From the IMG/VR virus record IMGVR_UViG_3300035698_035275, positions 2,843 through 66,842 of that record: 64,000 nt of DNA. One strand, written 5' to 3'. The stretch is from a virus. The translations under genes and the position numbers were made by a program. This document shows, piece by piece, positions 3,901 through 64,000 of the stretch (position 1 is its first letter; every line of letters begins with the position of its first letter). The notes beneath the pieces were generated by a model that saw only the letters and a program-made list of their open reading frames with translations, ran no database searches and was not told the DNA's origin.

Positions 3901-4381
3901 GGTAGCTGTTCATAAGGAGGAGACTGCCAAGCATCGTAGAGAGAGTCCTCAGCCTAAGCACGAGCCTAATGGGTTCACCAATACTAGAGAAAACCCGGTT
4001 GCAAGTTGGACTACTGACCCGACAACAGCCGCACAATTTGCCCTTGAGAATGGCCCAAAAAGGGAGAGCGGCAGAATCATGGTCAAATATATAGACTCAA
4101 AGGATACGCTATATTCTGACCGGGTGTTAGACATGATGGGCGGGTCCTCTGCAGAGAGAGAATGGGTCACATTAGCCAGAAATCATGAGAGGTCGTTTAT
4201 GAGTGAGCGCGTAGACCTTGACTATCACTCGGAGGAGGAGTACAAAGAGATAGAAGACAAGATTGGCAAGTACGAGACTATTGGCGGCGCTAAGTCGGAG
4301 AAGGAAATGTTCAGGCTTATGGTAAAGAGCGGATTTGCTAACCAGGAAGAGGTAGACGAGGAATTCGATAATGCCAAATAA
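989..4381 (+). CDS. MuF (SPP1 gp7-like) minor head protein with C-terminal ADP-ribosyltransferase-like domain
   Basis: MuF motifs LDDATSDICRFMDGK and FPPYHGLCRTT; C-terminal LYRG / SWTTD / EREW matches the R-S-E ART triad. Confidence 0.8.
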   Translation: MSGTYVQREASSGFFTALPYRDLGSNKIQAIQKMGAGVEESASIFFGGVLVDGGAGKSTKLMQAPSSGAASVIKEATRLARLYGSSTVSVPLCKVGDSVVWKRVEEYSSVGEMEAILILANDHDDIRGLVEFGEMTYIQKAAAKLNPMTPVGYTSFVGRLKTRLSKTTGPMDSSNLNAALDELLGEGTDWIGDKKKTKAVLRAVKDAAPSDYIMDEQLPKYETVLTATGEEITDGVKRDLVYEQGVSMGLDFTLADEKAIAAVAATHTNFVRNSFGARNAQMSIKARSIVSQGLEEGLGRGEIAGLLRKDLKNSYEKNTKNYMDVVAASFVGRARSKSCMTSYQEAQIEVVEVLAVLDDATSDICRFMDGKVLSVKETIRITEAADGLSNPADVKTALPWMRSNKNGLSVPTAGGGSLQVASKGDDGVLKGKIDDGKYADAKIGFPPYHGLCRTTTIASSDLTASVQVPAEAPVSDKEIKPESVLSGKPIKAKPKEEDVDTGSNLDIDVFTPATDFNSALKRTKELGVDIGMYGKDASLDVMNEINGGLVEARNMFGSSQISGLKVYSDSSTPKGGLVLPEPSSAVGQELSLKNINSRIKSSNNKNVVLVSGAGSARLSKSETIKDEIIRQVAVRHAMEITPKERKEFGAIANSLTPQQAYQLGARTSRYMETKQSNHLADVFGDMMLHSAQATRQGKNQPQYMVKNKAALDTLLTSIKNKKLQPKSKPVPVPKPVSMPKAGTKNATNEKIRSKREEDKPSIADVQEGRNKVSDRMKEPEWTKHFDDAFSAASKEIGRDVLDSKTDMSDLSYAKQVKIREIITKKVFSKMSDKERGGMTPDDLMSTMVSVTRSWTSSSNRGGAAMLKVWGESRFGTGTCFHSEYMDDDKGKRDGAMSYGLKDMAIRMTQKPAITAKNKANNKGWKSIAGNSSELKKRAIAVGDTQYWMTQKLLRGEGVKGKPLYRGVSGDMVAVHKEETAKHRRESPQPKHEPNGFTNTRENPVASWTTDPTTAAQFALENGPKRESGRIMVKYIDSKDTLYSDRVLDMMGGSSAEREWVTLARNHERSFMSERVDLDYHSEEEYKEIEDKIGKYETIGGAKSEKEMFRLMVKSGFANQEEVDEEFDNAK

Positions 4382-9852: not shown

Positions 9853-11859
9853 GTGAGGAAAAGGGCTAGCACAGAAATAATAAAGTCGGAGATAACGATT
9901 GTGTGTGCAGTGCACGATCCGGGTTGTCTTCCCGTGCTGGCCAAGTCGGTAGCGTCTATATTTGATTCCGGAATAAGAAATATCGTAGTGGTTGATTCCG
10001 GCAACAACGAGCCACACATAGTAGATATACTGCGCTCGGTGCCGTGGAAGACAGCTCATTATTACGGGGTGTCAGGCGGCAAGTTAGGATTTTCCAGGTC
10101 TAAACTAATCAATTACGGTGTAGCCAGAGTGAGCACCAGGTTCATTATGGTTTCTAACGCCGATAACATACTAGTTCCACAATTAATAAATAGTGTATGC
10201 GAGACGCTAGCGCGTGCAGCGTCGTCTATGGTCGTTATACCAGTTAGGTATGTGTCCGCCACGGATACTGAGTCGTTTATGTCGAAGGAGTGCAGGGCTA
10301 CCGAGTTACCAGCAATGATCACCAAATCGGACGATTCCATACCCGACTCGGGGGAGCCGATGGTATCCCCGTCATCCCCGTTTGTATGTGGGAGATACGA
10401 TTACTGCTCATCTGGGGGGTTTGACTGTACACTGGGCAGCGTCTCATTCGAGATGGAAGACCTCAAGGGTCGGTGGAAACAGCAGGGCAGAGATATAGTA
10501 TATGCCGATGGGTACTCACATCATTTGTACCACGCTGAGAGAGAGCACGTTAACAACACGAAGGCTGCGGCTGTTGGCACTGATGATGTTGTACAGTTTT
10601 CATATTCAGCAGTGGAAGGCGTGTCCTTTGTAGACTGTGCCATCAAACCGGTGGCCACGGTTATCGTAAAGAAGAATATACTGATATGCGGTGAGACTCT
10701 GGGGCTAGGTGGCGCTGAGAAGATGACGGTAGACATAGCTAATTCCCTAAACAGGTCCGGTCGTTTCAACGTCGAGGTAGTGCTAACCGTATCACGTAAT
10801 GGCATATTCAAGGATAGGCTCGACGGCGGTATACCGGTTAGCCTGGTTACATCTACGAAGGGCCTGACAGACATCGTATGCGAGCACAAGCCAGATGCCG
10901 TACTTGTTAACAACTGCAGAATCGCAACGCAGTGCATTAGAGACATAACCAACAGGCACAAACCCGACTACATAGGTGTGCTGTTACACGGGTTTAATGA
11001 GTGGACTATGAGAATGGTCCCAGACGAATTAGATGACGTGATAACCGACATCGTGACAATATCCCATGAGGCGGCTGGTGGAATAATAGGTAAGAAGCCA
11101 GCGTATAAGGGAAGACTGGCGGTATTCGAAAATTACGTAGATACCGACATATTTACGAAGAGCAGCGGAGCACGTACGATCTTTAATAAGTACGGGTGGC
11201 CGGACGACTCATTCGTATTCAGCTATATGGGCAGGCTCTCCGGAGAGAAATCATTAGTGCCGCTGGTAGAAACTTTTAAACGTGTGTTAACTAGAAACAA
11301 AAAAGCCAGACTGTTAATGATAGGCGGTTCAGATCCTGGTGTTCAGTCGTATAAGGGGTACTGGGACTCTAATATTAGGGTTATTACTGACTACATTAAG
11401 CAAATAGGGGTGGAGCAGGAAGTAAAAATAACCGGAGTCGTCAAGGACCCGTGGACGTACCTAAATGAGACAGATGTGCTCGTTATGTCGTCGCAATTTG
11501 AGGGAGTCCCACTAGCACTGTTAGAGGCTATGTCGTGCGAGGTGCCGTTTATTTCAACGGACGTAGGTAGCGTCTCCAGGTTCTCTAACGCTGGAGCCGG
11601 TGTGGTAGTGAAGAAGGTCGGACCGGATATGAATGACGGGGAAAGGTCGGAGTTCGCAGGTCACATGCTATCGGCTATGCGTAATCAGCCACGCGGGATA
11701 GCAATGGGTAAGGTTGGTAGGGAATACATAGAGAGGTTTCACAGCCTTAACGAATATAGTAGCAAAATATCTAGGTATTTTTGTAATGCAGTGTCTGGTG
11801 ACGGTACGACTAATAGTGATCGTGCCTGTGATAGAATAGTGGATCCAATAGTAATCTGA
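9853..11859 (+). CDS. Bifunctional glycosyltransferase (N-terminal GT2-like, C-terminal GT4/GT-B)
   Basis: VVVDSG, SRSKLINYG, GGFD..ED (GT-A); GLGGAEK, MGRLSGEK, FEGVPLALLEAM (EX7E of GT4). Confidence 0.85.
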   Translation: MRKRASTEIIKSEITIVCAVHDPGCLPVLAKSVASIFDSGIRNIVVVDSGNNEPHIVDILRSVPWKTAHYYGVSGGKLGFSRSKLINYGVARVSTRFIMVSNADNILVPQLINSVCETLARAASSMVVIPVRYVSATDTESFMSKECRATELPAMITKSDDSIPDSGEPMVSPSSPFVCGRYDYCSSGGFDCTLGSVSFEMEDLKGRWKQQGRDIVYADGYSHHLYHAEREHVNNTKAAAVGTDDVVQFSYSAVEGVSFVDCAIKPVATVIVKKNILICGETLGLGGAEKMTVDIANSLNRSGRFNVEVVLTVSRNGIFKDRLDGGIPVSLVTSTKGLTDIVCEHKPDAVLVNNCRIATQCIRDITNRHKPDYIGVLLHGFNEWTMRMVPDELDDVITDIVTISHEAAGGIIGKKPAYKGRLAVFENYVDTDIFTKSSGARTIFNKYGWPDDSFVFSYMGRLSGEKSLVPLVETFKRVLTRNKKARLLMIGGSDPGVQSYKGYWDSNIRVITDYIKQIGVEQEVKITGVVKDPWTYLNETDVLVMSSQFEGVPLALLEAMSCEVPFISTDVGSVSRFSNAGAGVVVKKVGPDMNDGERSEFAGHMLSAMRNQPRGIAMGKVGREYIERFHSLNEYSSKISRYFCNAVSGDGTTNSDRACDRIVDPIVI

Positions 11860-39662: not shown

Positions 39663-41108
39663 TTACACGTCCTCCACTACCCTATTGGATCTTAAATAAT
39701 CGTTGAAGGATATCTTTCTGGAGTACGCATCTATGATCATCTCATCAACAGACTTTTTATTATCCGGGCGCACCGACACGATGTCATAGACGACGGAGCC
39801 GCCTTTTTTAAACGGACTATAATTTCTCTCAAGAGACTGCTGCCTTATTTCGATATCCCAGTCGTGTGACAGGTATATCATTTGATCCGCTTGAGGGATG
39901 GTGTGTCCTCTAGATATACTCCTGGATTGGGCTAGCAGGACTTTCACTTCGTCCTGCGGCTCATCCTTAAACATCTTTATTCTAAAGAACACCTTCTCCT
40001 GCTTGACACTACCATCGACCCTGGTGTATCTTATTTTAGCCTTAGACAAAGCCTCTTCCATTAGGTCGAGGTCATACAAGAATCTAGACCATACTATAAA
40101 CTTCCCGTCATTGCCGCATATAATATCTATTGCCGACTGCACTTTGTTGCTCTTTATGTTTACTATGTCCCCGTCCTCATCCCTTACCCAGCCGGATGAT
40201 ACTCCTTGTCGGTGCACATATGAATCTATTCCGCCCTCTTTCTCGAAGGCTTTAATTAGTGGCATTTGCTGGCTATTCATCATTATCGGCACCTTTATAA
40301 ACGATACCGGCGGGATGTCCATACACTCATTCTTCTTATATCGTATTGACCTTTCAGATAGTATCTCCTCAGCTTTTTTAATGGCTGAGTCTCTTAGTCT
40401 CCAGTCAGGGTATTCGGACCCAACGTTTATGTAGTAGCTATTTTTGAACTGGTAGTAATTACTGCCGAATGGGGACTTATAACCATCTAAAACACACCAC
40501 TGCCCATATAGGTCTTCTATTCCTCTGTTAGCTGTGGCGGTACCCGTCAACATTAGCAAGTTGGGGGTGTCTTGAAATACGGCGCTGGCATGCCGTGTGA
40601 GCTTGCTGTTATAGTGCCGATACACGCTGGCTGACTCGTCCAGTATAACGAGGTCAAACCTATCCATACAACCAGGCAGCACCTTCACTATCTCATGATT
40701 CGATATAACTAACCCATCACGTTCCAGTACCTTCCTTCTTTTATCCTTGGGACCGCCGAGGTCCGTATGAACGTCAATATCCGGGGCGTGAGTGTTGGCC
40801 TCTTGTACCCACTCTAGCACCATCGTTCGCAGTGTAAGAACTAATGCGCTCTTAATCTTCTCTGTATGAATAAGCCACCTAAAGAAGTCTAAAGCCACCT
40901 TGCTCTTACCCATTCGCATATCCAGCAGTACCGGCAGTCTTCTATGATACATGCATGCCAGGAGACTCACTAGCTGATGGTGGTATGGCTTAGTGCAGAA
41001 CGTGAAGCCGTCGAAATACTCATCGATAATGTCATCAACGGACAAGGGATGACATTCCATTTTAAGCTTATCACAGAATCCAAGCTCTGATAACAGTCCT
41101 ACCGACAC
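39663..41108 (-). CDS. SNF2-like DNA helicase
   Basis: LDMRMGKS (I), ILDES (II), LTGT (III), C-terminal helicase motifs. Confidence 0.88.
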   Translation of the reverse strand: MSVGLLSELGFCDKLKMECHPLSVDDIIDEYFDGFTFCTKPYHHQLVSLLACMYHRRLPVLLDMRMGKSKVALDFFRWLIHTEKIKSALVLTLRTMVLEWVQEANTHAPDIDVHTDLGGPKDKRRKVLERDGLVISNHEIVKVLPGCMDRFDLVILDESASVYRHYNSKLTRHASAVFQDTPNLLMLTGTATANRGIEDLYGQWCVLDGYKSPFGSNYYQFKNSYYINVGSEYPDWRLRDSAIKKAEEILSERSIRYKKNECMDIPPVSFIKVPIMMNSQQMPLIKAFEKEGGIDSYVHRQGVSSGWVRDEDGDIVNIKSNKVQSAIDIICGNDGKFIVWSRFLYDLDLMEEALSKAKIRYTRVDGSVKQEKVFFRIKMFKDEPQDEVKVLLAQSRSISRGHTIPQADQMIYLSHDWDIEIRQQSLERNYSPFKKGGSVVYDIVSVRPDNKKSVDEMIIDAYSRKISFNDYLRSNRVVEDV

Positions 41109-41110
41109 CT

Positions 41111-41671
41111 TTATTCCTCCTTTTCAACGATTGGCAGAGTTATTTCGGATTGGCCCTGGTATTTACCGGATCTTGAATAGTAGTTGGTAGCGCACGCGGC
41201 ACCGCGAAAGAATATAGCCTGCATTATTCCTTCTCTAGCATGCACCCTTACCGGTAATGGGGTGCTGTTGCTTATTTCTATTGTAACCTTCCCGTGCCAC
41301 CCAGGTTCAAGCGGTGTTACATTGACGATTATTCCGCACCTTGCATATGTGCTCTTCCCAATACATATTGCTATTACATTGTCCGGCATGTGGATAGTCT
41401 CTACGGACTTAGCCAGGGCGAATGAGTTAGGCGGTATGTCACAATAATCACCTTCCACCCGTACGAATGATTCCGTCTTCATATTCTTCGGGTCTATCGT
41501 GACATTGTGCACATTATGGAACACTAGGAACTCGTTATCTACACGCAGGTCGTACCCATACGATGACACCCCATACGATATTACCCCACTCGACACCTGC
41601 TTATTAAGAAATGGATCTACTATCTTATGATTTTCAATCTGTCTGTCGTTCAGTATCACCTTTTCCTCCAT
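41111..41671 (-). CDS. dcd: dCTP deaminase
   Basis: SYGVSSYGYDLR, IPPNSFALA, GKSTYARCG, TPLEPGW, YQGQ. Confidence 0.95.
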   Translation of the reverse strand: MEEKVILNDRQIENHKIVDPFLNKQVSSGVISYGVSSYGYDLRVDNEFLVFHNVHNVTIDPKNMKTESFVRVEGDYCDIPPNSFALAKSVETIHMPDNVIAICIGKSTYARCGIIVNVTPLEPGWHGKVTIEISNSTPLPVRVHAREGIMQAIFFRGAACATNYYSRSGKYQGQSEITLPIVEKEE

Positions 41672-41906
41672 TATATTGCTATTTAATCGGCATACTAATA
41701 AAGACGCAGTGTGTAATGTAGTGTTTCAGGGAACACCATCAGATAGTACCAGGTAATACCAAAGGAACGGAGTCCTGCACCCACCGTCATTATAAATGAT
41801 TGACCCAAGCTGACAGTATGGAAGAGATTGGCGTTTAACATTTGGCATATGATATTTGACACCTGGCATATAAGGCCGCTGAAACGCGATTCTTTGTGCA
41901 ACGTCT

Positions 41907-41996
41907 TTATTGGTTCATGTAGTGGGCCGGTCGTCGTCATAGTATACCCCTGACTAATTTACTCTATGATGGCGATTGGCTGCACTACGCTAATAG
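41907..41996 (+). ncRNA. Long G-U-rich RNA hairpin in the leader of the rightward early operon
   Basis: About 32 pairs; core GTAGTG-GGCCGGTCGTCGTCATAG / CTATGATGGCGATTGGCT-G-CACTAC; all non-Watson-Crick pairs are G-U on the + strand. Confidence 0.6.
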
Positions 41997-50768: not shown

Positions 50769-53255
50769 ATGTCCTGTGACGGCTGTCCATTACGCGGTGT
50801 AAGCATAAATACAAAAGTGCCTGGGGGTGGTAGTAATAGCCCATCAATAATGCTGGTAGGTGAGGCACCAGGGAGAGAAGAGGACGAATTAAATCAAGTG
50901 TTTGTGGGTCCGGTCGGGGTGTTCCTAAGAGAATGCATGGCCAGCATGGAGGTAGACGCATCCGATATCTACTTCACTAATATTGTAAAGTGCAGGCCAC
51001 CGAATAACAAGCTGGTAGGCAAATATAAAAAGGCCGTAAAGCACTGTAAGGAGTACCTGCTAGAGGAAATAGAAAGGCTGTCCCCGACGGTTATAGTGCC
51101 TCTCGGTGACACAGCAATGGAAGCATTACTAGGAATACGCGGTATTTGGAAGAACCACGGCAGGGTAATAGATAGAGACGGAATCCCTGTAGTACCCACT
51201 TTCCACCCGTCATACGTCAAATTCTACAATAAGAGTGACCAGGTATTTGACTTATACTCCCAGGACCTATATAATGCTGCGGTAATAGCAGAGGGCGGCA
51301 CGCCAGAAATTATAATACCAGACGTTGACTATATAACAGAGGGTGTTACTAATGACGATATATTGCTGCTGCTCAAGGCGGATATACTGTCTATAGACAT
51401 CGAGACTAACACAGTCAGCACGCACTATTGCACCATATCGGCGGATGCTGACAGGGGACCACGAATACTGTCGATATCGTTTTCATGGGATGAGGGCGTC
51501 GCAATGTTTGTCCCATGGGATGAGGAGCACATGCCAGCTATAAAGGCAGTGTTGGAGTCGGACATCCCAAAGGTGGCGCATAACTGGAAATTTGAATACT
51601 CGTGGCTAGTGTTAAAAGAGGGTATTGCCGTTAGCAACATATACATGGATACCATGCTAGCACATTACCTGGTGGACGAAAACAGCAGGCACGGGTTGAA
51701 GGAGCTAGCGTACACGTACACCGATATTGGTGGGTATGACGTGGAGATGGATGTGTACATAGGTGATCACCCGGAGTGTGACCCAAAGAAGAGCGGGTCA
51801 TATGCGAATATACCGCTTAGGCTACTATCTAAGTACAATTGTGGAGACGTGGATGCGACCCTGCGAATAGCGCGTAAGCTTAGCAAGGTAATGGATGACA
51901 AACTGTGGTCACTACATAATAACATACTGGTGCCAGCGGCTGAGATGCTGTCTCGGGCGGAGCTTAGCGGGTTTGAGTTAGATATTGATATGTGGGACTG
52001 CCTGAACAACGAGTATACGGCTAAGGTTAGTGAAGCTATTGATGACGCTATGTCTATTGACGAGGTTAGGCACTTCTGGAAGTATTATAAGGAGTCCACC
52101 AAGGCCAAGGGAGACAGGGTTAATCTTAGGTCTTCCAAGCAGGTATCGCTCTTAATGACGGAGTACTTCAGATTTCCAGTGATAAGGGAAACCGACTCCG
52201 GCAATCCGTCATGGGATTCCGAGGTAATAGACGAGCTGCTAAGGATGGATAGGTACAAGGGGAATAAATTCCTGCCGATACTAAAAAGAGTAAGAAGCAT
52301 TTTGCAGATACAAAGCAACTGTCTAGGGACGACGCCTAAGCAAATAGCGGAGTCGGTTGATGCCAGGGTGCATACGAATTTTATCTTGCATTTTGTAGTC
52401 ACTGGTCGCCTGTCGTCTAGAAACCCAAATATGCAGGCTATTCCTAGAGAGTCTACTGTTGGCCCGTTGAACGTGCCGTCAATAAAGACAATGTATATTT
52501 CCAGGTACGACGGCGGGAACATTGTACAGGCCGACTATAGCCAGATAGAGCTTAGGATATTGGCTATGCTGTCTGGTGATAAGGCGTTCAGGCGCATATT
52601 TGAAGAGGGGCTGGACCCGCATGCTAGTGTTGGGGTTAATATATACAAAATGCTAGAGGGGAAGGACATAGACATAGCGGACCTGCCGAAAGAGTGGAGA
52701 GATAAAGGGAAGACAACCAACTTTGCAATAGTGTATGGGCAGACACCAGAGGGGATGGCTAAAAAGCTAGGCTGTACAGACGCGGAAGCTAAGAAGATGA
52801 TGTCTGCCACCATGTCTACATACTCGGGAATAGACGACCTGCTTAAGGGGTATAGGAATGATGTCATAAAGAATGGGTATGTTGAATCCCCATTTGGCAG
52901 GAGGAGGAGACTGCCGATAATCGAGGGTATGAGTAGGTCAGATAAGAATGCGGCACTGAGAGAGGCCGGTAATCACCCTGTACAAAGTGCCGCGTCGGAC
53001 ATGACCCTATACTCAGCGGTACTACTGGATGCCGAAATCAGAAGACTGGGTATGAAGTCGCACATAATATGCCTTGTGCACGACTCGATAATACTGGATA
53101 CTCCCAGTAATGAGACTGAAAAGGTGTGTAAGATGGTAGGGGATATTATGAGGTCATTACACAAGCATTTCGACTGGATAGACGGCAGTTTCCCGATAGA
53201 GGTAGACGTTGAGTATGGCCCGTCATGGGGCGAGCTTAACGAGTACGAGGCATGA
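50769..53255 (+). CDS. polA: Family A DNA polymerase with N-terminal family-4 uracil-DNA glycosylase domain and 3'-5' exonuclease
   Basis: CxxC, GEAPG, NIVKCRPP, HPS (UDG4); DIET, YNCGD (exo); DYSQIELR, KTTNFAIVYG, VHDS (pol motifs A/B/C). Confidence 0.93.
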   Translation: MSCDGCPLRGVSINTKVPGGGSNSPSIMLVGEAPGREEDELNQVFVGPVGVFLRECMASMEVDASDIYFTNIVKCRPPNNKLVGKYKKAVKHCKEYLLEEIERLSPTVIVPLGDTAMEALLGIRGIWKNHGRVIDRDGIPVVPTFHPSYVKFYNKSDQVFDLYSQDLYNAAVIAEGGTPEIIIPDVDYITEGVTNDDILLLLKADILSIDIETNTVSTHYCTISADADRGPRILSISFSWDEGVAMFVPWDEEHMPAIKAVLESDIPKVAHNWKFEYSWLVLKEGIAVSNIYMDTMLAHYLVDENSRHGLKELAYTYTDIGGYDVEMDVYIGDHPECDPKKSGSYANIPLRLLSKYNCGDVDATLRIARKLSKVMDDKLWSLHNNILVPAAEMLSRAELSGFELDIDMWDCLNNEYTAKVSEAIDDAMSIDEVRHFWKYYKESTKAKGDRVNLRSSKQVSLLMTEYFRFPVIRETDSGNPSWDSEVIDELLRMDRYKGNKFLPILKRVRSILQIQSNCLGTTPKQIAESVDARVHTNFILHFVVTGRLSSRNPNMQAIPRESTVGPLNVPSIKTMYISRYDGGNIVQADYSQIELRILAMLSGDKAFRRIFEEGLDPHASVGVNIYKMLEGKDIDIADLPKEWRDKGKTTNFAIVYGQTPEGMAKKLGCTDAEAKKMMSATMSTYSGIDDLLKGYRNDVIKNGYVESPFGRRRRLPIIEGMSRSDKNAALREAGNHPVQSAASDMTLYSAVLLDAEIRRLGMKSHIICLVHDSIILDTPSNETEKVCKMVGDIMRSLHKHFDWIDGSFPIEVDVEYGPSWGELNEYEA

Positions 53256-55244: not shown

Positions 55245-56378
55245 ATGCCCAAATTCGGTAATGTAGACCTGATAATAGGCGGTCAGTACGGATCAGAGGG
55301 AAAAGGTAAACTCGCCGGGTATGTATCCCGGCGGGTTCCTTATTCCGTCGCCGTGTGCAACTTCACATCTCAAGCCGGTCATACATTTGTGTATGACGAA
55401 GGCAGAAAGGTTATTACGCAACAACTACCAACAGCTATAGTGAGTAGTTGTGAGAATATAATGATAGGGCCTGGTGCTATCATAGATGAAGACGTACTGG
55501 AGAGGGAGATAAACGAGTACGGACTAACAGAAGCCAGACTTACTATAGACAGCAACGCTATAGTGATAGACCAGAGGCACAAAGACGCTGAGAGGGCCAA
55601 CGCCATAAGGGTAGCATCAACGATGAAGGGCAATGGAGCTGCAGCAGCGGAGAAGTGTCTCAGATTCCAGGGCTTGAGGACTGCTGGCGATGACTCGTTC
55701 AGATTTAAGCAGTACGTTGGTGATGTGAGGTCGGCACTACACAATACGCACGTGATGGGTGGTGACATACTGCTGGAGGGGTCGCAAGGGTTCGACCTGG
55801 ATGTTAATCTTGGATTTTATCCATTTGTCACCAGCAGGGGGACCACTAGCGCGGCAGAGCTTAGCAGGTGCGGCCTTTCGCCACAAAGCGTAAGGAATGT
55901 ATTCGGCGCATATCGGACGTTCCCAATACGCGTTGGGAACTTGAAGGATGAAAACGGTGTGGAGGTGGGTAATTCCGGGCCTGTATACGATGACCAGACG
56001 GAGATGACGTGGGATGAGCTGTCTAGCCAATATGGGGGTGCTGATAAGCTGCTGGAGAGGACCACAGTGACAGGCAGGGTCAGAAGGGTGTTTACGTTCT
56101 CCCGGACCCAATTTGCCAGATCGATAGTGTCGAACGGGGTAAACTGCATATTTATAAATTACGCTAACTACATCGACGGGGCCTTGTACGGTGCCAGTGG
56201 TGATAGTGACGATTCCCCATCGCGTAATGCCAAGCTTCTTGACTGGTTGCAGCAGAACATCGTTCCCGTCCTTTCGAAGGTGCACGATATAGGTGAGAGG
56301 GTCATTATACCACTTCTTATTGGTACTGGCCCCGCCGACTCTGACATGTTGTCGATTAACATGATTGTGGGGTCCTAA
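55245..56378 (+). CDS. purZ: N6-succino-2-amino-deoxyadenylate synthase (PurZ-type PurA paralogue)
   Basis: GQYGSEGKG (Ser replacing the PurA catalytic Asp), AGHT, EGSQGF, YPFVTSR, RTFPIRVG, ERTTVT..RR, NYANY replacing PurA TKLD. Confidence 0.85.
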   Translation: MPKFGNVDLIIGGQYGSEGKGKLAGYVSRRVPYSVAVCNFTSQAGHTFVYDEGRKVITQQLPTAIVSSCENIMIGPGAIIDEDVLEREINEYGLTEARLTIDSNAIVIDQRHKDAERANAIRVASTMKGNGAAAAEKCLRFQGLRTAGDDSFRFKQYVGDVRSALHNTHVMGGDILLEGSQGFDLDVNLGFYPFVTSRGTTSAAELSRCGLSPQSVRNVFGAYRTFPIRVGNLKDENGVEVGNSGPVYDDQTEMTWDELSSQYGGADKLLERTTVTGRVRRVFTFSRTQFARSIVSNGVNCIFINYANYIDGALYGASGDSDDSPSRNAKLLDWLQQNIVPVLSKVHDIGERVIIPLLIGTGPADSDMLSINMIVGS

Positions 56379-56379
56379 T

Positions 56380-57369
56380 ATGCGAGGGTTCGAAGTAAAA
56401 TTCGTGTCCGGCTATACAGGGTCTGGCAAGACGGCCTATACTGATAGGTTGCACCTGGATACTGGGTGGCCGGTACTGCACATAGGTGACTCGTTAAGGG
56501 AGTTTGGTATATCGTCCAAATCCATATCCGAGATGCCGGATGCGCACGCTCCCGCGTCGTTGGACAAGATGGTTAATCAAACGGTGGCTAATTTCATTGC
56601 TGAAGCGTTAGGACCTGAAGGAGGGGGCGGCGTAATAATAGATGGATTTCCACGTAAGCCGTCGCAGGTTCACGAGGCATATGAGATGGTGTGTGGGCTG
56701 GTGCGTTACGCACCAGGAGAAATACGCCTAAGATTTGTATTTGTGACGGCACCTATTGATACAAGAATATCCAGGGTGCTGAGTAGCAGGAGCGAGGCCA
56801 GAAGAGAGTTATCTGTAATGAAGATAGAATCGGAGTCTGCCGATATGGATAACTCTATAAAAGTGGCAAAGGAGATCGAGAGAGGTAAGCCAGCGTTAGC
56901 AATGAGCATTATGGTTACAGAGACGGGGATAAAAGAGATATACCCAGGAGTGATGGTGGCAGATGTACTGGTGGTTGGAGACGGGTACAGAATGCCCGTG
57001 CATGCTGGGGACGTTGGGATAGACTTAAGCTCAAACGGCAGGGTTGAAATACTCCCTGGGGAGTTCAGCAATGTAGAAACCGGGGTAAGCGTTAAGATAG
57101 ATGATAGATGCTGGGGAAGAGTGACCGGCAGATCATCGGCTGTATGGGGTAAGGGAATAATGGTGATGGAGGGAGTCATTGACCCAGGGTATACCGGTGA
57201 GCTGTTTATGCTCGTGTATAACCCTGGGAAAAAGGCGGTGGTGGTGGATAGGGGAGACAGAATAGCCCAACTAATTCTAATACCAAGGGTTGACTATAGC
57301 GTATTGAGGGTAGACAGTCTGCCAAAGACGAGTAGAGGCAATAAAGGATTCGGCTCAACCGGTAAATGA
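56380..57369 (+). CDS. Adenylate/NMP-kinase-like domain fused to trimeric dUTPase
   Basis: GYTGSGKT, IGDSLR, IDGFPR (ADK family); GIDL, GRSS, GVIDPGYTG, GDRIAQL, RGNKGFGSTG (dUTPase motifs 1-5). Confidence 0.88.
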   Translation: MRGFEVKFVSGYTGSGKTAYTDRLHLDTGWPVLHIGDSLREFGISSKSISEMPDAHAPASLDKMVNQTVANFIAEALGPEGGGGVIIDGFPRKPSQVHEAYEMVCGLVRYAPGEIRLRFVFVTAPIDTRISRVLSSRSEARRELSVMKIESESADMDNSIKVAKEIERGKPALAMSIMVTETGIKEIYPGVMVADVLVVGDGYRMPVHAGDVGIDLSSNGRVEILPGEFSNVETGVSVKIDDRCWGRVTGRSSAVWGKGIMVMEGVIDPGYTGELFMLVYNPGKKAVVVDRGDRIAQLILIPRVDYSVLRVDSLPKTSRGNKGFGSTGK

Positions 57370-59580: not shown

Positions 59581-59910
59581 GTGGTAATTGTGTATATTTC
59601 TAACAGCAGGATTGTGTCTATCGTTAGTGCCATAATCACGGTTTCTGATGATGGGGGTGCAGAAATAGACGTCAGTAATTGCATTCTTGAGGTAGGTGTT
59701 TCGATGCTGGTCTTTGGGTGCTTGAGCAACTCCGTAGTGTATATTATAGAAGGTGCCTATGTCGATCATCTAGTGGAAGAGCTGCACGGTCTGAGCGACG
59801 GGGTAATAAACAGCGAGTCGGTAAGAGTGCGTAAAGCTTCGGGCGTGCTGGACATAGCCGGGTTATCAAATTCTCTAATGGCTGTTGAGGTGTTCCTTGG
59901 CATCGAATAA
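59581..59910 (+). CDS. Hypothetical protein
   Basis: ORF fills the gap between nrdJ and helicase; start uncertain. Confidence 0.4.
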   Translation: MVIVYISNSRIVSIVSAIITVSDDGGAEIDVSNCILEVGVSMLVFGCLSNSVVYIIEGAYVDHLVEELHGLSDGVINSESVRVRKASGVLDIAGLSNSLMAVEVFLGIE

Positions 59911-61213
59911 ATTAAAATTCGACTTTGACGATGAGTTTCAACTGTCGGTGGTGTCACTGCTGCTGAGAGATTATAGATTTGCTAGGAGAGCTTTATCTGT
60001 CCTAGACCCTGACTATTTCACTGACGACGACTTATCTGCTATATCCGGAGCTGCTATCGGGTATGTTAGGAAATACGGAGTATGTCCATCATCCCCTAGT
60101 GACTTTTTGCTGTACATGGCATCACTAGGGGATATGGATGGCCGTATGCCAGAATTCGAGGACTCTATTCCATTACTGTACGAGGGGCGCATGCCGTCCG
60201 GGATAGTGGTGGATACAGTGGTGGAGTGGTGTAGGAGAGTTAGGGTGGAGAGTGCGTTATCCTCTGCCATGCTGGAGATGTCGGCAAACAGTGGTGATGT
60301 TGACTACTCCTCCATTAGAGGAGGAATAATAGACGCTATAGACTCTGGTGGGATATTAGATCCAGGGGTTGACTTGTTCAAGGATGCTGAGGATATACTA
60401 AATAGGCCGAGGAAGCCTGGAGCGTGTAGGACCGGAATAAATTCTCTAGATAAAGTGCTAGGTGGTGGCCTCGGGGCAGGGGAGATGGGCCTGATTTCTG
60501 CGCCGTCCGGTCGTGGAAAGTCCACTCTCGCTATCAATTTTGCATGTGGCTCACTATATATGGGTAATGACATCTACTACTATACACTGGAAATGCCAAA
60601 GCACCAGGCCAGCATGTATTTTATACAGTGCTTAACAGGAATGACGAAGGAGGGAATATATAAGGCTGAGAATGGGAAGAACAGGGCCTTAAAGAAGCTC
60701 CTGAGAATAGCTAATACATATAAGTCAAATGCGTACATAAAGGAGTTTCAGGAGCGTAAGACTACATACGATGACATAAGAACGGACATTCTAAGGAGAA
60801 TGGACGAAACCGGCAGAGCGCCAGCTCTAATAGTCGTGGACTCCCCTTATTTATTAAAACCGGTAAGGCACAGGGCCAGAGGGGATGAGGAAATAGAAGA
60901 TAACGTTCTTGGGGTAAGGGCAATAGCTAAGGAGCTTGGAATAGCAGTGTGGGGTATGGGGCAGGGAAACCGCAGCTCTGAGGATCCGGACACCGAGACT
61001 ATGACTAATTACCACTTGGCAATGGCATATTCTCAAGCATTCGGTCTTGACGTATCATTGACTATTAATAGGACATCTGGGGAAATAGACAGAGGAGAGG
61101 CAAGGATATACATTGCTAAAAACAGAGAAGATATGTCGGCAATGTCGGTAAGGACCAAGTGCGATCTAGCCAAAAGAAGATTCACTGACATGGATGAGGG
61201 AGGGAGTGACTAG
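59897..61213 (+). CDS. DnaB-like replicative helicase
   Basis: GAGGTG RBS before TTG; TGINSLD..GG, APSGRGKST, YTLEM, VVDS, Q.NR, IAKNR. Confidence 0.88.
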   Translation: MASNKLKFDFDDEFQLSVVSLLLRDYRFARRALSVLDPDYFTDDDLSAISGAAIGYVRKYGVCPSSPSDFLLYMASLGDMDGRMPEFEDSIPLLYEGRMPSGIVVDTVVEWCRRVRVESALSSAMLEMSANSGDVDYSSIRGGIIDAIDSGGILDPGVDLFKDAEDILNRPRKPGACRTGINSLDKVLGGGLGAGEMGLISAPSGRGKSTLAINFACGSLYMGNDIYYYTLEMPKHQASMYFIQCLTGMTKEGIYKAENGKNRALKKLLRIANTYKSNAYIKEFQERKTTYDDIRTDILRRMDETGRAPALIVVDSPYLLKPVRHRARGDEEIEDNVLGVRAIAKELGIAVWGMGQGNRSSEDPDTETMTNYHLAMAYSQAFGLDVSLTINRTSGEIDRGEARIYIAKNREDMSAMSVRTKCDLAKRRFTDMDEGGSD

Positions 61214-61215
61214 AG

Positions 61216-62196
61216 ATGGCGAGGAATGACAGCAGAATAGTTAACGAGCTATCCAGGAAGCTTGGAAGACCGCAAAGCGACGCTGACGGATCTCCCCATG
61301 TGTCGGTTGGTGGTGATTACTCGTTCTGCTGTCCAATGTGCATAAGTAGAAGCAGGTCAAAGACCAGAGATACCAAATACAAGCTGATGATTAACATTGG
61401 CAAGGGGATATACCACTGTTACAGGTGCAAGGCTAGCGGTAGCTTGCACGACCTCATAGACATTAAGATTGGGATGGCTGCGTCGGCGGTGGATAGGGCG
61501 GCTGTTAGACCGCCATCCGGTATGCCGTCGCACTCCACGGAAATAGTGCGTACAGGTGATAAGTGGAAATGGCTGTCGTCACGAAGGAAGATAGGCAGAG
61601 GCATAGATCCAGTATACGACTGGGACGGCACGCCCTGGGCTAAAGGGCTGTTTATGGAGTCATTGGGTATGCCGTGGCACATAATATTAGTATTCCCGAA
61701 TTCCGATTACTGGCTGGCATACGCTACTATTAAAGAGATAGAACCAAAGACAATAAACGAAACAGGGAAGAAGATAGTATACAATCCTCGCATACTCAAG
61801 GACGTAGATGACCTATGGTTAGTGGAAGGCCCAATGGATTGTCTATCCTGCCCTAACTCGGTCGCTTCTCTCGGTAAAGAATACTGGCCTGGTTTGGGGC
61901 GAGCACTGCTGGATATTGGATTTAGTAGGTTGGTCATTTGCTTAGACGGGGGTGAGTTGGAGTCTACGGTTGAGATGGCCGTTAAGTTGTCGCGAAATGG
62001 AATAAACAGCAACAGAATATTCTACTGCCTGCTGCCGAACGGGTATGATCCTAATGACGTGGGGTCGTCCAGTGTGGAAATGGCAGAATACATGAATTCG
62101 TCGTGTGACGGGCTAATACACCCAATGCACACACTACCAATAATACGAAGAATGCCAAGAATGGCCATCCCAGAGGTGGACTATGATAAATCCTGA
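61216..62196 (+). CDS. DNA primase (Zn finger + TOPRIM)
   Basis: CPMC..HCYRC, LVEGPMD, CLDG, DPND; follows helicase. Confidence 0.82.
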   Translation: MARNDSRIVNELSRKLGRPQSDADGSPHVSVGGDYSFCCPMCISRSRSKTRDTKYKLMINIGKGIYHCYRCKASGSLHDLIDIKIGMAASAVDRAAVRPPSGMPSHSTEIVRTGDKWKWLSSRRKIGRGIDPVYDWDGTPWAKGLFMESLGMPWHIILVFPNSDYWLAYATIKEIEPKTINETGKKIVYNPRILKDVDDLWLVEGPMDCLSCPNSVASLGKEYWPGLGRALLDIGFSRLVICLDGGELESTVEMAVKLSRNGINSNRIFYCLLPNGYDPNDVGSSSVEMAEYMNSSCDGLIHPMHTLPIIRRMPRMAIPEVDYDKS

Positions 62197-62944
62197 CAAA
62201 CTGACACCCGTTGAGCATTTGGCTGCTATTGGTGTGTACCTAAAGAGAGATGACCTGTTCAAGGTGGCTGGGGTGTGTGGCGGTAAGGCCAGATCGTGTT
62301 TTAAGCTGATTGACAAATACGCTGGTGACTCGAAGGTGCTGGTCACTAAGTGCTCAAGGTTCAGCCCCCAGGGTATAATAGTGAGTGCGCTGGCGGCACG
62401 CTTAGGCAAGAAGTCCATGATATTCGTTCCGTGGTCTAAAGAGGATACAGAGGAGAATACCAGGATAATAAATAACGGTGGGCAGTTGATTAAGTGCTAC
62501 CCTGGTTATCCGTCCGTTATAGATAAGAAGATGAAGGAACTCACCCCAGACGACGCATATATTATTCCGTTTGGAATGGAATGCTCCGAGGCGGTGGAGT
62601 CCACCAGAGCGCAGACCAGGAATATTCCATTTGACAAGATAGATAGGATAGTGATTACCCTGGGATCCGGGATGTCACTTAGTGGCCTGCTGTGGGGGAT
62701 GAAGGATAAAGGCGTCCACAAAAAAGTGCTAGCGGTAATGATCGGTAAAGACACTAGGCCATCAGTAATAAAATGGTCGCCTGCCGATATGTTGGAGGAT
62801 GTGGAGTTTGTCCAGAGCGGCTACAAATACAATAGGGTAGTAAAAAGCGAAATCGGCTCGGTAGCGCTGGATCCTCATTACGAGGCAAAGGCCGCAGAAC
62901 TCGTGCAACCGGGAGACTTATTCTGGATAGTAGGCAAAAGATAG
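62183..62944 (+). CDS. PLP-dependent enzyme (fold type II, ACC deaminase/cysteine synthase-like)
   Basis: LTPVE..LKRDDL..GGKAR (PLP lysine), SPQ, GSGMS phosphate loop, LDPHYEAK. Confidence 0.85.
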   Translation: MINPDKLTPVEHLAAIGVYLKRDDLFKVAGVCGGKARSCFKLIDKYAGDSKVLVTKCSRFSPQGIIVSALAARLGKKSMIFVPWSKEDTEENTRIINNGGQLIKCYPGYPSVIDKKMKELTPDDAYIIPFGMECSEAVESTRAQTRNIPFDKIDRIVITLGSGMSLSGLLWGMKDKGVHKKVLAVMIGKDTRPSVIKWSPADMLEDVEFVQSGYKYNRVVKSEIGSVALDPHYEAKAAELVQPGDLFWIVGKR

Positions 62945-62953
62945 GCGTATAAA

Positions 62954-64000
62954 ATGGACCACAAGTCATTATTGGAGAGATTTGCACAGGAAGCAATCGA
63001 TGCTGGTATTACTGACAAGTCGGAAGCGTCGAAATTCATAAGGGTGGCCCTAATAAAAGAAATGGGGGTTCTGCCGTCCAGCATGATGGGAATGGACAGG
63101 TCACTGGATATACGGGGTAATGGCGTCAAGGCTGGCCGTAATCTGTTAGCGTACACTGAGGATGCCCCTACTGATATGTACGCTAACCAGAAAAAAGCCG
63201 GTAGGCTGTCCGTGTTCGAGGGCAGGCTAGCCGACCTTTGCATCAAGATGTGGTCGGATGCTGGTGATATAGTGCTGGACCCCTTCTCCGGAAGAGTGAC
63301 CAGGCTGGCATTCTCGGTCGAGAATGGTAGGAAGTACATTGGATTTGACACATCGCCCGAGGCGTGCAAGTACAATAATGATTGGTTGGCTGGCACCGAG
63401 TACGGGGACGATGCACTGATAGTGAACGAGTCATTGATAACGTTCGACGGGCTTAATGGCGAGTCGGCTGATATGGTTTTTACCTGCCCCCCGTACTGGA
63501 ACAGCGAGTTTTACGGAGATAACGGTAATGGCATAGAAGGAACGGAATCATACGGGGACTTCATAGAGGAAATAGCTGCCATATTCTGTAAGGCGTACGC
63601 GGCGCTAAAGCCGGATTGCTACTTCGTGGTGGTTGTTAAGGACTTCTACCTGCATAGGCAGATGGTGAGTCTCCACTCTGACATAATAAGGGTAATGAGT
63701 GCTATCGGTGCCGTCACGTGGGATGTAATCGCTAAGATGGCATCTAATACCAGGATTATGTTCCACAGGGACATAGCAGCTAACAGAAGGACAGCTCAAA
63801 CCCACGAATACGTATTGGTGTTCAGGAAATCAGCTCATAAGAAGAACAGGGACCAGTATAGGAATAACTGTTATAATAAGAACACCAAGAGGAAGGAAGA
63901 GGATGAAGGTCTGGCCCGTGCCAGGGCAAAAATCCTAAGCGATGCCGGAGTAGATGTTAGTTCCATATTGCCGATATTGAAATATGATAAGGTTAAATAG
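62954..64000 (+). CDS. SAM-dependent DNA amino-methyltransferase-like protein
   Basis: VLDPFSG (SAM binding) precedes FTCPPYW (catalytic-type motif); LKP..YF; HEYVLVFRK. Confidence 0.8.
   Translation: MDHKSLLERFAQEAIDAGITDKSEASKFIRVALIKEMGVLPSSMMGMDRSLDIRGNGVKAGRNLLAYTEDAPTDMYANQKKAGRLSVFEGRLADLCIKMWSDAGDIVLDPFSGRVTRLAFSVENGRKYIGFDTSPEACKYNNDWLAGTEYGDDALIVNESLITFDGLNGESADMVFTCPPYWNSEFYGDNGNGIEGTESYGDFIEEIAAIFCKAYAALKPDCYFVVVVKDFYLHRQMVSLHSDIIRVMSAIGAVTWDVIAKMASNTRIMFHRDIAANRRTAQTHEYVLVFRKSAHKKNRDQYRNNCYNKNTKRKEEDEGLARARAKILSDAGVDVSSILPILKYDKVK

Follow-up and report, generated by a model that had tools for sequence, protein, structure and literature searches.

Pyridoxal 5′-phosphate (PLP) enzymes that act on DNA are known from phages M6 and ViI, whose purified proteins M6 gp52 and ViI gp226 decarboxylate amino acids carried by thymine in DNA (Lee et al., NAR 2021/22, PMC8989533). 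K36 of M6 gp52 is named there as the PLP lysine, ViI gp226 was modelled on the structure 1j0a, and natural fusions are reported of such PLP enzymes with the kinase and the transferase that install the amino acid. Here we report on a 64,000-nucleotide (nt) stretch of viral DNA (the window; positions 2,843 to 66,842 of IMG/VR record IMGVR_UViG_3300035698_035275), which ends in a gene for a PLP enzyme of fold type II followed by a gene for a DNA methyltransferase-like protein of a 'CPPY' family. The features of this locus, with protein lengths in amino acids (aa), were as follows.

61216–62196, plus strand: DNA primase-like gene, its last 14 nt shared with the start of the PLP gene
62183–62944, plus strand: gene for a stand-alone fold-type-II PLP enzyme, 253 aa (PF00291, phrog_3650, phrog_7093)
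62285–62287, plus strand: K35 codon; this lysine of a GGK motif is predicted to be the PLP (Schiff-base) lysine
62945–62953, plus strand: 9-nt spacer from the PLP gene to the methyltransferase-like gene
62954–64000, plus strand: gene for an N6_N4-type DNA methyltransferase-like protein of the 'CPPY' family, 348 aa, complete (PF01555, phrog_12517)
63278–63304, plus strand: S-adenosylmethionine (SAM)-binding motif I, DPFSGRVTR, D109 to R117
63482–63496, plus strand: predicted catalytic motif IV, TCPPY, T177 to Y181

A preliminary description of this DNA had named the ViI and M6 enzymes as decarboxylases of DNA-attached amino acids, which the paper bears out (PMC8989533). It had also described a PLP gene overlapping the primase stop and, 9 nt after it, a SAM-binding TCPPY protein. 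The open reading frame (ORF) coordinates, with an overlap of 14 nt, the PF01555 match and the motif at residues 177–181 agreed with every detail of this layout, except that the second gene was not cut by the end of the window: its TAG stop supplies the final 3 bases for both the window and the 66,842-bp record.

The PLP protein matched Pfam PF00291 (PALP) barely above the 35-bit cut-off (36.1 bits, E = 5.8e-9), and the PHROG families phrog_3650 and phrog_7093 at 3.1e-27 and 1.4e-20. Menlow gp026, an Ackermannviridae protein of 411 aa, belongs to the first of these families (1.2e-233) and YuA gp11 to the second (7.9e-157). When its profile was compared by hhalign, the PLP protein aligned over the whole length with Menlow gp026 (98.7% probability, E = 2.1e-16) and with YuA gp11 (96.8% probability, E = 2.3e-10). 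By annotation YuA gp11 lies among gp10 (hypothetical), gp12 (a radical-SAM-type 'photolyase') and gp13 (a putative kinase), and since this order matches that of M6 gp51–54 (PMC8989533), gp11 was taken as the M6 gp52 orthologue. From taxonomy, length and gene order, Menlow gp026 and YuA gp11 are probably orthologues of ViI gp226 and M6 gp52, respectively.

K35 and the phosphate loop GSGxS (G161-S162-G163-x-S165) were invariant across 23 of 23 aligned relatives of the PLP enzyme, and K35 aligned with K36 of YuA gp11 and with the GGNK lysine of D-cysteine desulfhydrase 4d8t. Like M6 gp52 (PHROG 7093) and ViI gp226 (PHROG 3650), the enzyme is a compact fold-II protein with its lysine at K35 versus K36, and it shares with them KR(D/E)DL, S-P-Q, a Gly/Ser phosphate loop and (D/N/H)PxY(E/D)xK. 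As in those systems it is phage-encoded, lies in a replication module and belongs to a kind that tends to be fused with what would be the substrate-installing enzyme. Unlike theirs, its partner is a SAM-dependent methyltransferase-like enzyme and not a 5-hydroxymethyldeoxyuridine (5-hmdU) DNA kinase with an aGPT-Pplase. Since the partner differs and 5-hmdU pathway genes were not found in the record, both the base and the side chain are expected to differ from those of M6 and ViI. The PLP enzyme is best seen, from its sequence, as a third branch of the group of PLP enzymes that act on DNA adducts.

The solved structures nearest to the PLP domain, by sequence and by the fold of a predicted fusion protein (predicted local distance difference test, pLDDT, 81), were D-cysteine desulfhydrase and 1-aminocyclopropane-1-carboxylate (ACC) deaminase, and the lysine, the serine and the DPxY Tyr line up in 4d8t, 1tzk and 1j0a. 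Unlike these enzymes, the protein has 253 residues as against about 320–340 (some 80 fewer) and stands among DNA enzymes, not in amino-acid catabolism. Identity as an ACC deaminase or D-cysteine desulfhydrase was rejected: the NCBIfam models (TIGR01274, TIGR01275) gave partial matches of 27.7 bits versus a cut-off of 392 and 23.6 versus 289.4 (E from 1e-5 to 1e-6), so that the curated models were missed more than 10-fold in bit score.

The 348-aa protein matched PF01555 (N6_N4_Mtase; E = 3.6e-24, 86.4 bits against a 26.7-bit cut-off) and phrog_12517 (2.7e-37). The PF01555 match was split, the end of the profile (178–218) preceding its start (2–132), and motif I (residues 109–117) comes before motif IV (177–181), not after it as in the beta class. 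Motif IV reads TCPPY, with Cys where amino-methyltransferases carry Asp, Asn or Ser, and so departs from the canonical (D/N/S)PP(Y/F/W); C178, P179, P180 and Y181 were invariant across 20 of 20 aligned relatives. In motif I of these 20 relatives D109, P110 and R117 were invariant and F111 and G113 nearly so, a conserved Arg replacing the usual GxG continuation.

The nearest solved relatives were real or putative N4C/N6A methyltransferases (2zie, 5.6e-28; 8s9n, 1.4e-16; CcrM; MboIIA). The motif I region aligned with motif I of such solved enzymes, and TCPPY with SPPY of 2zie. Thus the protein is like the beta-class N4C/N6A methyltransferases (2zie TTHA0409, 8s9n, CcrM 6pbd, MboIIA 1g60, PvuII 1boo) in its Pfam family and in the alignment of SAM motif I, of the xPPY motif IV and of the stretch that follows it. 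It is unlike them in the CPPY sequence, in having motif I before IV (2zie: IV before I), in the invariant motif I Arg and in that most of its PLP-linked relatives are interrupted by a PLP domain of ~245 aa. As with other phage methylases, ParB_N-fused forms exist (PMC12704722). An AlphaFold model (pLDDT 76.6) had a class-I SAM-methyltransferase fold, and a fold search with it returned generic class-I enzymes (TleD 5gm2, 2e-11; Trm11 6zxw, 1.6e-9), which did not discriminate among activities. No aminocarboxypropyl-transferase family of Pfam was matched, PF01555 being the only hit at E ≤ 0.1.

To survey the pairing of the two genes, 80 viral loci were retrieved from IMG/VR with the PLP protein-family profile and their domains were mapped by a six-frame hidden Markov model search; several of these loci were near-identical, so that they represent fewer independent events than 80. 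Their arrangements were as follows.

48 of 80: N-terminal half of the methyltransferase, PLP domain and C-terminal half of the methyltransferase in one open frame
3 of 80: methyltransferase then PLP domain in one frame
4 of 80: methyltransferase and PLP domain in a single frame, truncated at the end of a contig or interrupted by a frame break
8 of 80: separate genes, adjacent or overlapping, as in the window
7 of 80: methyltransferase 0.6–4.2 kb from the PLP gene
10 of 80: no methyltransferase within 6 kb of the PLP gene

Both domains thus lay in one reading frame at 55 of the 80 loci, and in separate genes of the same locus at another 15. In the consensus of 28 fusions the insertion point of the PLP domain (~245 aa) lies past motif II and ahead of motif III: the domain is preceded by motif X, motif I (VLDPFAGGSVRG) and motif II, the consensus running on after motif I as ...G.DL, and is followed by motif III (W..GDS) and motif IV (ADF.FSCPPY), and the SAM fold is otherwise intact around the insertion. 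Two independent databases bore this out. In one, PF00291 and PF01555 occurred together in 110 of the 120 longer homologues listed, often with ParB_N. The PLP clade comprised 584 cluster representatives (50% identity, E ≤ 1e-30), and the best 150 of these 584 were classified: 104 were fusions with this type of methyltransferase, the arrangements counted being 79 insertion fusions, 18 with the methyltransferase first, 5 with the PLP domain first and 4 partial ones; 23 were short stand-alone PLP proteins like that of the window and 21 had other or unknown extensions. CPPY was found in 69 of 73 motif IV instances at the PLP-selected loci, and in 101 of 104 among the same best 150 representatives.

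When 995 ORFs neighbouring the pair were clustered, no third conserved partner emerged, the next cluster being present at 13 of 80 loci. The neighbourhood survey suggested in the preliminary description returned a conserved unit, fused in most relatives. Some carriers are cultured phages, namely Pam4, ZS04, vB_EliS-R6L and Alsa_1. Pseudanabaena phage Pam4 gp70 (829 aa) carries the fusion and is annotated only as a PLP enzyme, Erythrobacter phage ZS04 gp7 and vB_EliS-R6L ORF1 are annotated only as methylases, and Staphylococcus phage Alsa_1 has the split pair. In the available part of the R6L paper ORF1 is treated as a CcrM-like methylase and the PLP part goes unmentioned. As far as sequence can tell, the fusions in most relatives support the view that the two genes function as a pair. 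When the complex of the window's methyltransferase and PLP enzyme with SAM and PLP was predicted, the score was 0.00, which weighs neither way on binding.

The PLP clade also had other companions. PLP-domain fusions were seen with a D12 adenine methyltransferase (P0230, where a 1513-aa fusion also includes an XkdF-type protease domain), with a 2-oxoglutarate-type hydroxylase (an Asp/Asn-hydroxylase-type domain) together with PF01555 (P0272), with a GNAT acetyltransferase (P0295, P0328) and with a SET domain (P0389), and the set P0230, P0261, P0272, P0295, P0328 and P0389 also holds a fusion with a family-A polymerase. Some of these unusual fusions may be gene-calling run-ons. The GNAT, SET, hydroxylase and D12 fusions support a link of the PLP clade to the tailoring of amines or side chains. 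At one locus (L009, 3447–6846) a stand-alone PLP gene is immediately preceded, on its upstream side, by two LPG_synthase_C-type (aminoacyl-tRNA transferase-like) proteins, and an SPPY methyltransferase is found farther upstream; the LPG_synthase_C-type proteins may represent a tRNA-dependent route to install an amino acid.

The module of the window would most likely add an amine-bearing group to the DNA, as a form of phage DNA hypermodification with a PLP tailoring step, and there is a substantial chance that this is new DNA chemistry. One option in the preliminary description was that the SAM enzyme transfers an aminocarboxypropyl group which the PLP enzyme decarboxylates. That the CPPY enzyme transfers the 3-amino-3-carboxypropyl (acp) group of SAM to a base, and that this group then becomes aminopropyl through decarboxylation by the PLP enzyme, is the reading we favour, and from the sequences at hand it falls just short of an even chance. 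Two of its elements hold up, the functional pairing (through the fusions) and the homology of the PLP enzyme to the M6 and ViI decarboxylases, while the transfer and the decarboxylation are what we infer.

The pair would then be a two-step, post-replicative module for the hypermodification of a DNA base. In the first step the CPPY enzyme would bind SAM, flip a base out and move onto it the acp part of SAM instead of the methyl, with methylthioadenosine as the by-product. As an exocyclic amine is what an xPPY motif normally holds, the likeliest targets would be N6 of A or 2-aminoadenine (Z), N4 of C, and N2 of G or Z; alternatively, the invariant Cys might serve as a nucleophile on pyrimidine C6. 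In the second step PLP bound at K35 would make a Schiff base at the free alpha-amine that the tethered amino acid bears and CO2 would be removed, so that the DNA would keep a 3-aminopropyl side chain with a positive charge. For such a PLP enzyme to work, the DNA must carry a free alpha-amino acid. In most carriers its one constant companion is the SAM-binding enzyme, frequently within a single polypeptide, and the amino acid which that companion could supply is the methionine part of SAM; as no third conserved partner surrounds the pair, SAM is the only evident source of an alpha-amino acid. CPPY in place of D/N/S-PPY, together with the invariant Arg of motif I, fits an altered chemistry.

Tyw2, Tsr3, TapT and spermidine synthase have a SAM fold that presents the methionine C-gamma, not the methyl, to the nucleophile. 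Unlike the transferase proposed here, Tyw2, Tsr3, the DTW/TapT enzymes and spermidine synthase have tRNA, rRNA and small amines as their known substrates, not DNA, and acp transfer from SAM is known to date from RNA, proteins and small molecules only. In the full-text literature searched, no account was found of methyltransferase–PLP fusions, of a CPPY motif or of DNA bearing acp or aminopropyl groups. Related outcomes have been reported from phage DNA hypermodified at adenine by a tRNA-dependent route (PMC13219725) and from carboxymethylcytosine made by CmoX, a methyltransferase-type enzyme with a SAM-derived donor (PMC12783734). Those systems resemble the proposed one in decorating A or C after replication with amino-acid-like or carboxyl groups; unlike it, they use other enzyme families, and their abstracts mention no PLP partner.

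Several observations weigh against acp transfer followed by decarboxylation. We know of no N6_N4-type enzyme that transfers acp, and none was found in the literature searched. The PLP enzyme is only 21–24% identical to YuA gp11 and Menlow gp026, and at such remote similarity to gp52 and gp226 its reaction type may differ. Seen from the methyltransferase side the pairing is sparse: 27 of 80 viral loci retrieved with the methyltransferase profile were CPPY, and only 2 of these 27 had a PLP gene within 8 kb. Among metagenome loci with at least 900 bp on both sides the PLP gene was present in 2 of 21. The 25 records with PLP-free CPPY loci gave, on a whole-record search, weak partial PLP matches only (3 of 25), and none of the five that are at least 90% complete had a PLP gene. 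PLP-linked and PLP-free CPPY enzymes were interspersed on the tree, and no conserved column separating them was found; both comparisons rest on the C-terminal half, over which alone the fused members were aligned. The CPPY family may thus share one chemistry, possibly plain methylation. Either all CPPY enzymes transfer acp, with decarboxylation being optional, or all methylate and the PLP enzyme acts at the cofactor site.

The window's methyltransferase sits in a separate subclade of the tree with about 13 known relatives, and this too weighs on the same side, since pairing within the subclade could be checked in a single locus. A metagenome scan for close relatives returned three, at 39–49% identity. 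One (L163) appears chimeric, its open frame entering an unrelated, hydrophobic, membrane-protein-like stretch, and another (L165) is cut off, which leaves L164, 40% identical to the window's methyltransferase, as the sole informative one. Its PLP gene, 2.3 kb downstream of the CPPY gene, is of a more distant, gp52-type kind (220 aa, phrog_7093 at 4.1e-30). The gene order at L164, 3291–10878, was as follows.

First part: D12 Dam-type methylase, CPPY enzyme, unknown, GGACT, PLP enzyme
Second part: unknown, Amidoligase_2, GGACT, PD-(D/E)XK nuclease, SNF2 helicase

This cluster, in which GGACT and Amidoligase_2 are possible installers near the PLP gene, resembles a larger cassette for amino-acid-based DNA modification.

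The main rival is plain methylation, also among the options of the preliminary description. Here the CPPY enzyme would make N6-methyladenine or N4-methylcytosine, its Cys replacing the Ser or Asp of ordinary amino-methyltransferases, and the PLP enzyme would act on S-adenosylhomocysteine (SAH), SAM or an ACC-like molecule at the cofactor site, either relieving product inhibition or draining host SAM. We regard this as unlikely. The methylation itself is in keeping with a PF01555 score (86 bits) beyond the cut-off, with the N4C/N6A methyltransferases that are the nearest solved relatives, and with CPPY enzymes that commonly lack a PLP gene and are indistinguishable in sequence from PLP-linked ones. 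For the cofactor-side activity speak the PLP fold, whose closest solved structures are D-cysteine desulfhydrase and ACC deaminase, and the insertion beside the SAM-binding half, which would put PLP near the methionine end of the cofactor. Set against this, the PLP enzyme matches the families of DNA-adduct decarboxylases (1e-20 to 1e-27) far better than the ACC deaminase and desulfhydrase models (1e-5 to 1e-6), destruction of SAM would starve the fused methyltransferase, and the GNAT, SET and hydroxylase fusions better suit side-chain tailoring. We know of no methyltransferase with a built-in SAH- or SAM-lyase.

The two steps might also run in reverse, the PLP enzyme making decarboxy-SAM and the CPPY enzyme then transferring aminopropyl, with the same end product. 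A PLP domain inside the SAM-binding fold would suit the hand-over of a modified cofactor, the PLP homologues are decarboxylases, and spermidine synthases, of class-I methyltransferase fold, transfer aminopropyl to amines. What makes this order improbable is that PLP-free CPPY enzymes would be left without a donor, that genes split by up to 4 kb and PLP genes beside other installers (L009) argue for recognition of a DNA adduct, and that the homologues so far characterised use substrates tethered to DNA instead of free cofactors (PMC8989533).

Distinctly improbable is that the two genes serve separate functions, the PLP enzyme trimming an amino acid installed by an enzyme in the unseen part of the genome (through a thymidine pathway, or an aminoacyl-tRNA or amidoligase route) beside an unrelated protective methylase. 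The genes are unfused in this phage, no terminase was found in the record, another contig with the same proteins is longer by about 7 kb, the L164 PLP gene lies amid GGACT, Amidoligase_2 and a second methylase, 10 of 80 PLP loci have no nearby methyltransferase, and L009 has its aminoacyl-tRNA-transferase-like neighbours; yet the 9-nt spacing and the same-strand order are those of a split form of a pair mostly fused in relatives, the window's methyltransferase bears the CPPY signature typical of PLP partners, and no hydroxymethylase, kinase, aGPT-Pplase, amidoligase or GNAT was found among the ORFs called on the 66.8 kb. Thymidine hypermodification, a further option offered earlier, was rejected for the visible 66.8 kb, as Pfam and PHROG scans of the ORFs detected none of its dUMP hydroxymethylase, 5-hmdU kinase and aGPT-Pplase; about 7 kb of the genome probably lies outside the record.

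The record, which has genes for portal, capsid, sheath, tube, tape measure and baseplate, is that of a contractile-tailed phage. The block for replication and nucleotides encodes an SNF2 helicase, a dCTP deaminase, a RecA/UvsX-like recombinase, SbcCD, a family-A polymerase, a protein like single-stranded DNA-binding proteins, a PurZ-like synthase, a kinase-like/dUTPase fusion, a ribonucleotide reductase, a helicase and the primase. No terminase, large subunit included, was found by Pfam and PHROG among the ORFs called on the 66,842 bp. The first bases of the record are an ATG and its last are a stop codon, a terminal repeat is absent, and it appears to be incomplete, with ends trimmed to gene borders. 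A 74,294-bp contig is on record with the same two proteins, the PLP enzyme and the methyltransferase, and this, with the missing terminase, means that the record is probably about 7 kb short. A scan of viral contigs for exact matches to the last bases of the window, made to read beyond the record end, gave no match, and no near-identical DNA was found in named phages. Features of the block were as follows.

50769–53255, plus strand: family-A DNA polymerase, 828 aa, with an N-terminal uracil-DNA glycosylase (UDG)-superfamily domain and a 3′-5′ exonuclease domain
55245–56378, plus strand: PurZ-like succino-aminodeoxyadenylate synthase (NF038379, phrog_1211, P-loop)
56365–57369, plus strand: P-loop kinase-like (AAA_17/ADK-like) and dUTPase fusion, adjoining the PurZ-like gene (Pfam; TIGR00576, 1.4e-29)
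59885–61213, plus strand: DnaB-like helicase gene (open reading frame)

The primase-like protein matched phrog_47 (DNA primase) at 3.9e-20 among PHROG profiles and was weak in Pfam (Zn_ribbon_DnaG, 0.0042; Toprim_2, 0.028).

The preliminary description had placed the modification on top of a 2-aminoadenine genome. The best NCBIfam match of the PurZ-like protein was PurZ itself (NF038379, 3.9e-66), at 223 bits below the 300-bit cut-off; it matched phrog_1211 at 1.6e-60, and its P-loop, GSEGKGK, has Ser at the PurZ-defining position. PurZ is recognised by this Ser in place of the Asp of PurA (bioRxiv 10.1101/2025.10.22.683976). Neither DatZ nor MazZ was found in the record. In PurZ0 phages Dut-type enzymes replace DatZ/MazZ, clear dATP and can occur as fusions with an NDT-like domain (PMC12884076), and the kinase-like/dUTPase fusion is possibly such a dATP-clearing enzyme. 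A kinase-like N-terminus on a dUTPase would differ from the NDT-like fusion of PurZ0 phages. A Z genome is therefore plausible for this phage from its gene content. A module specific to PurZ was rejected, in that 0 of 30 other module-bearing records had a protein above the PurZ cut-off and 1 of 30 a weak match. What stands of the earlier statement is that Z is plausible here; a general link to PurZ is not borne out, and the combination is particular to this phage. Methyltransferases and PLP go unmentioned in the available parts of the two Z-genome papers (bioRxiv 10.1101/2025.10.22.683976, PMC12884076). The wider claim, that CPPY 'methyltransferases' are DNA acp transferases which with the PLP decarboxylase write N-(3-aminopropyl) purines or cytosines, here atop a 2-aminoadenine genome and possibly on Z, is in our judgement possible, with the chances leaning somewhat against it.

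If acp transfer and decarboxylation were to be borne out, the pair would be a second general route to amino-acid-derived DNA hypermodification, starting from SAM and a methyltransferase scaffold and not from 5-hydroxymethyluracil. The route would be widespread, with 584 clusters in the PLP clade and most of its best-scoring members fused to a CPPY enzyme, and the reaction type would be new among DNA methyltransferase-like enzymes. It would explain the length of 700–1100 aa of some phage 'methylases', and would matter for how such DNA is sequenced and restricted and for site-directed amine labelling tools. This phage would then have two stacked genome-wide DNA modifications, and with Z its DNA would be altered on the Watson-Crick face and carry a cationic side chain as well. 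The enzyme pair is widespread and unstudied, and as cultured phages carry it the question is directly testable.

Other genes of the record and of the PLP-clade loci were as follows. UDG-PolA genes, comparable in type to the family-A polymerase of the window, lay near stand-alone PLP genes at two loci (L055 and L074). One UDG-PolA group has been tied to phage genomes in which T is modified; in an N4-like group the UDG catalytic residues have been lost (PMC13697223). At 9853–11859 (plus strand), amid structural genes, a 668-aa protein with a group-1 glycosyltransferase domain is encoded; at L068 a stand-alone PLP gene has a similar glycosyltransferase at a distance of 1.2 kb. At 989–4381 (plus strand) a 1130-aa head-associated protein has a Mu-F-like region and a match to the DRAT-type ADP-ribosyltransferases (PF07357, 3.7e-6), and may be a packaged, injected ADP-ribosyltransferase. 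The genome has a strong plus-strand GC skew. Its sole minus-strand island, at 39663–41940, encodes an SNF2-type helicase and a dCTP deaminase (TIGR02274, 6.7e-48), besides a small ORF.

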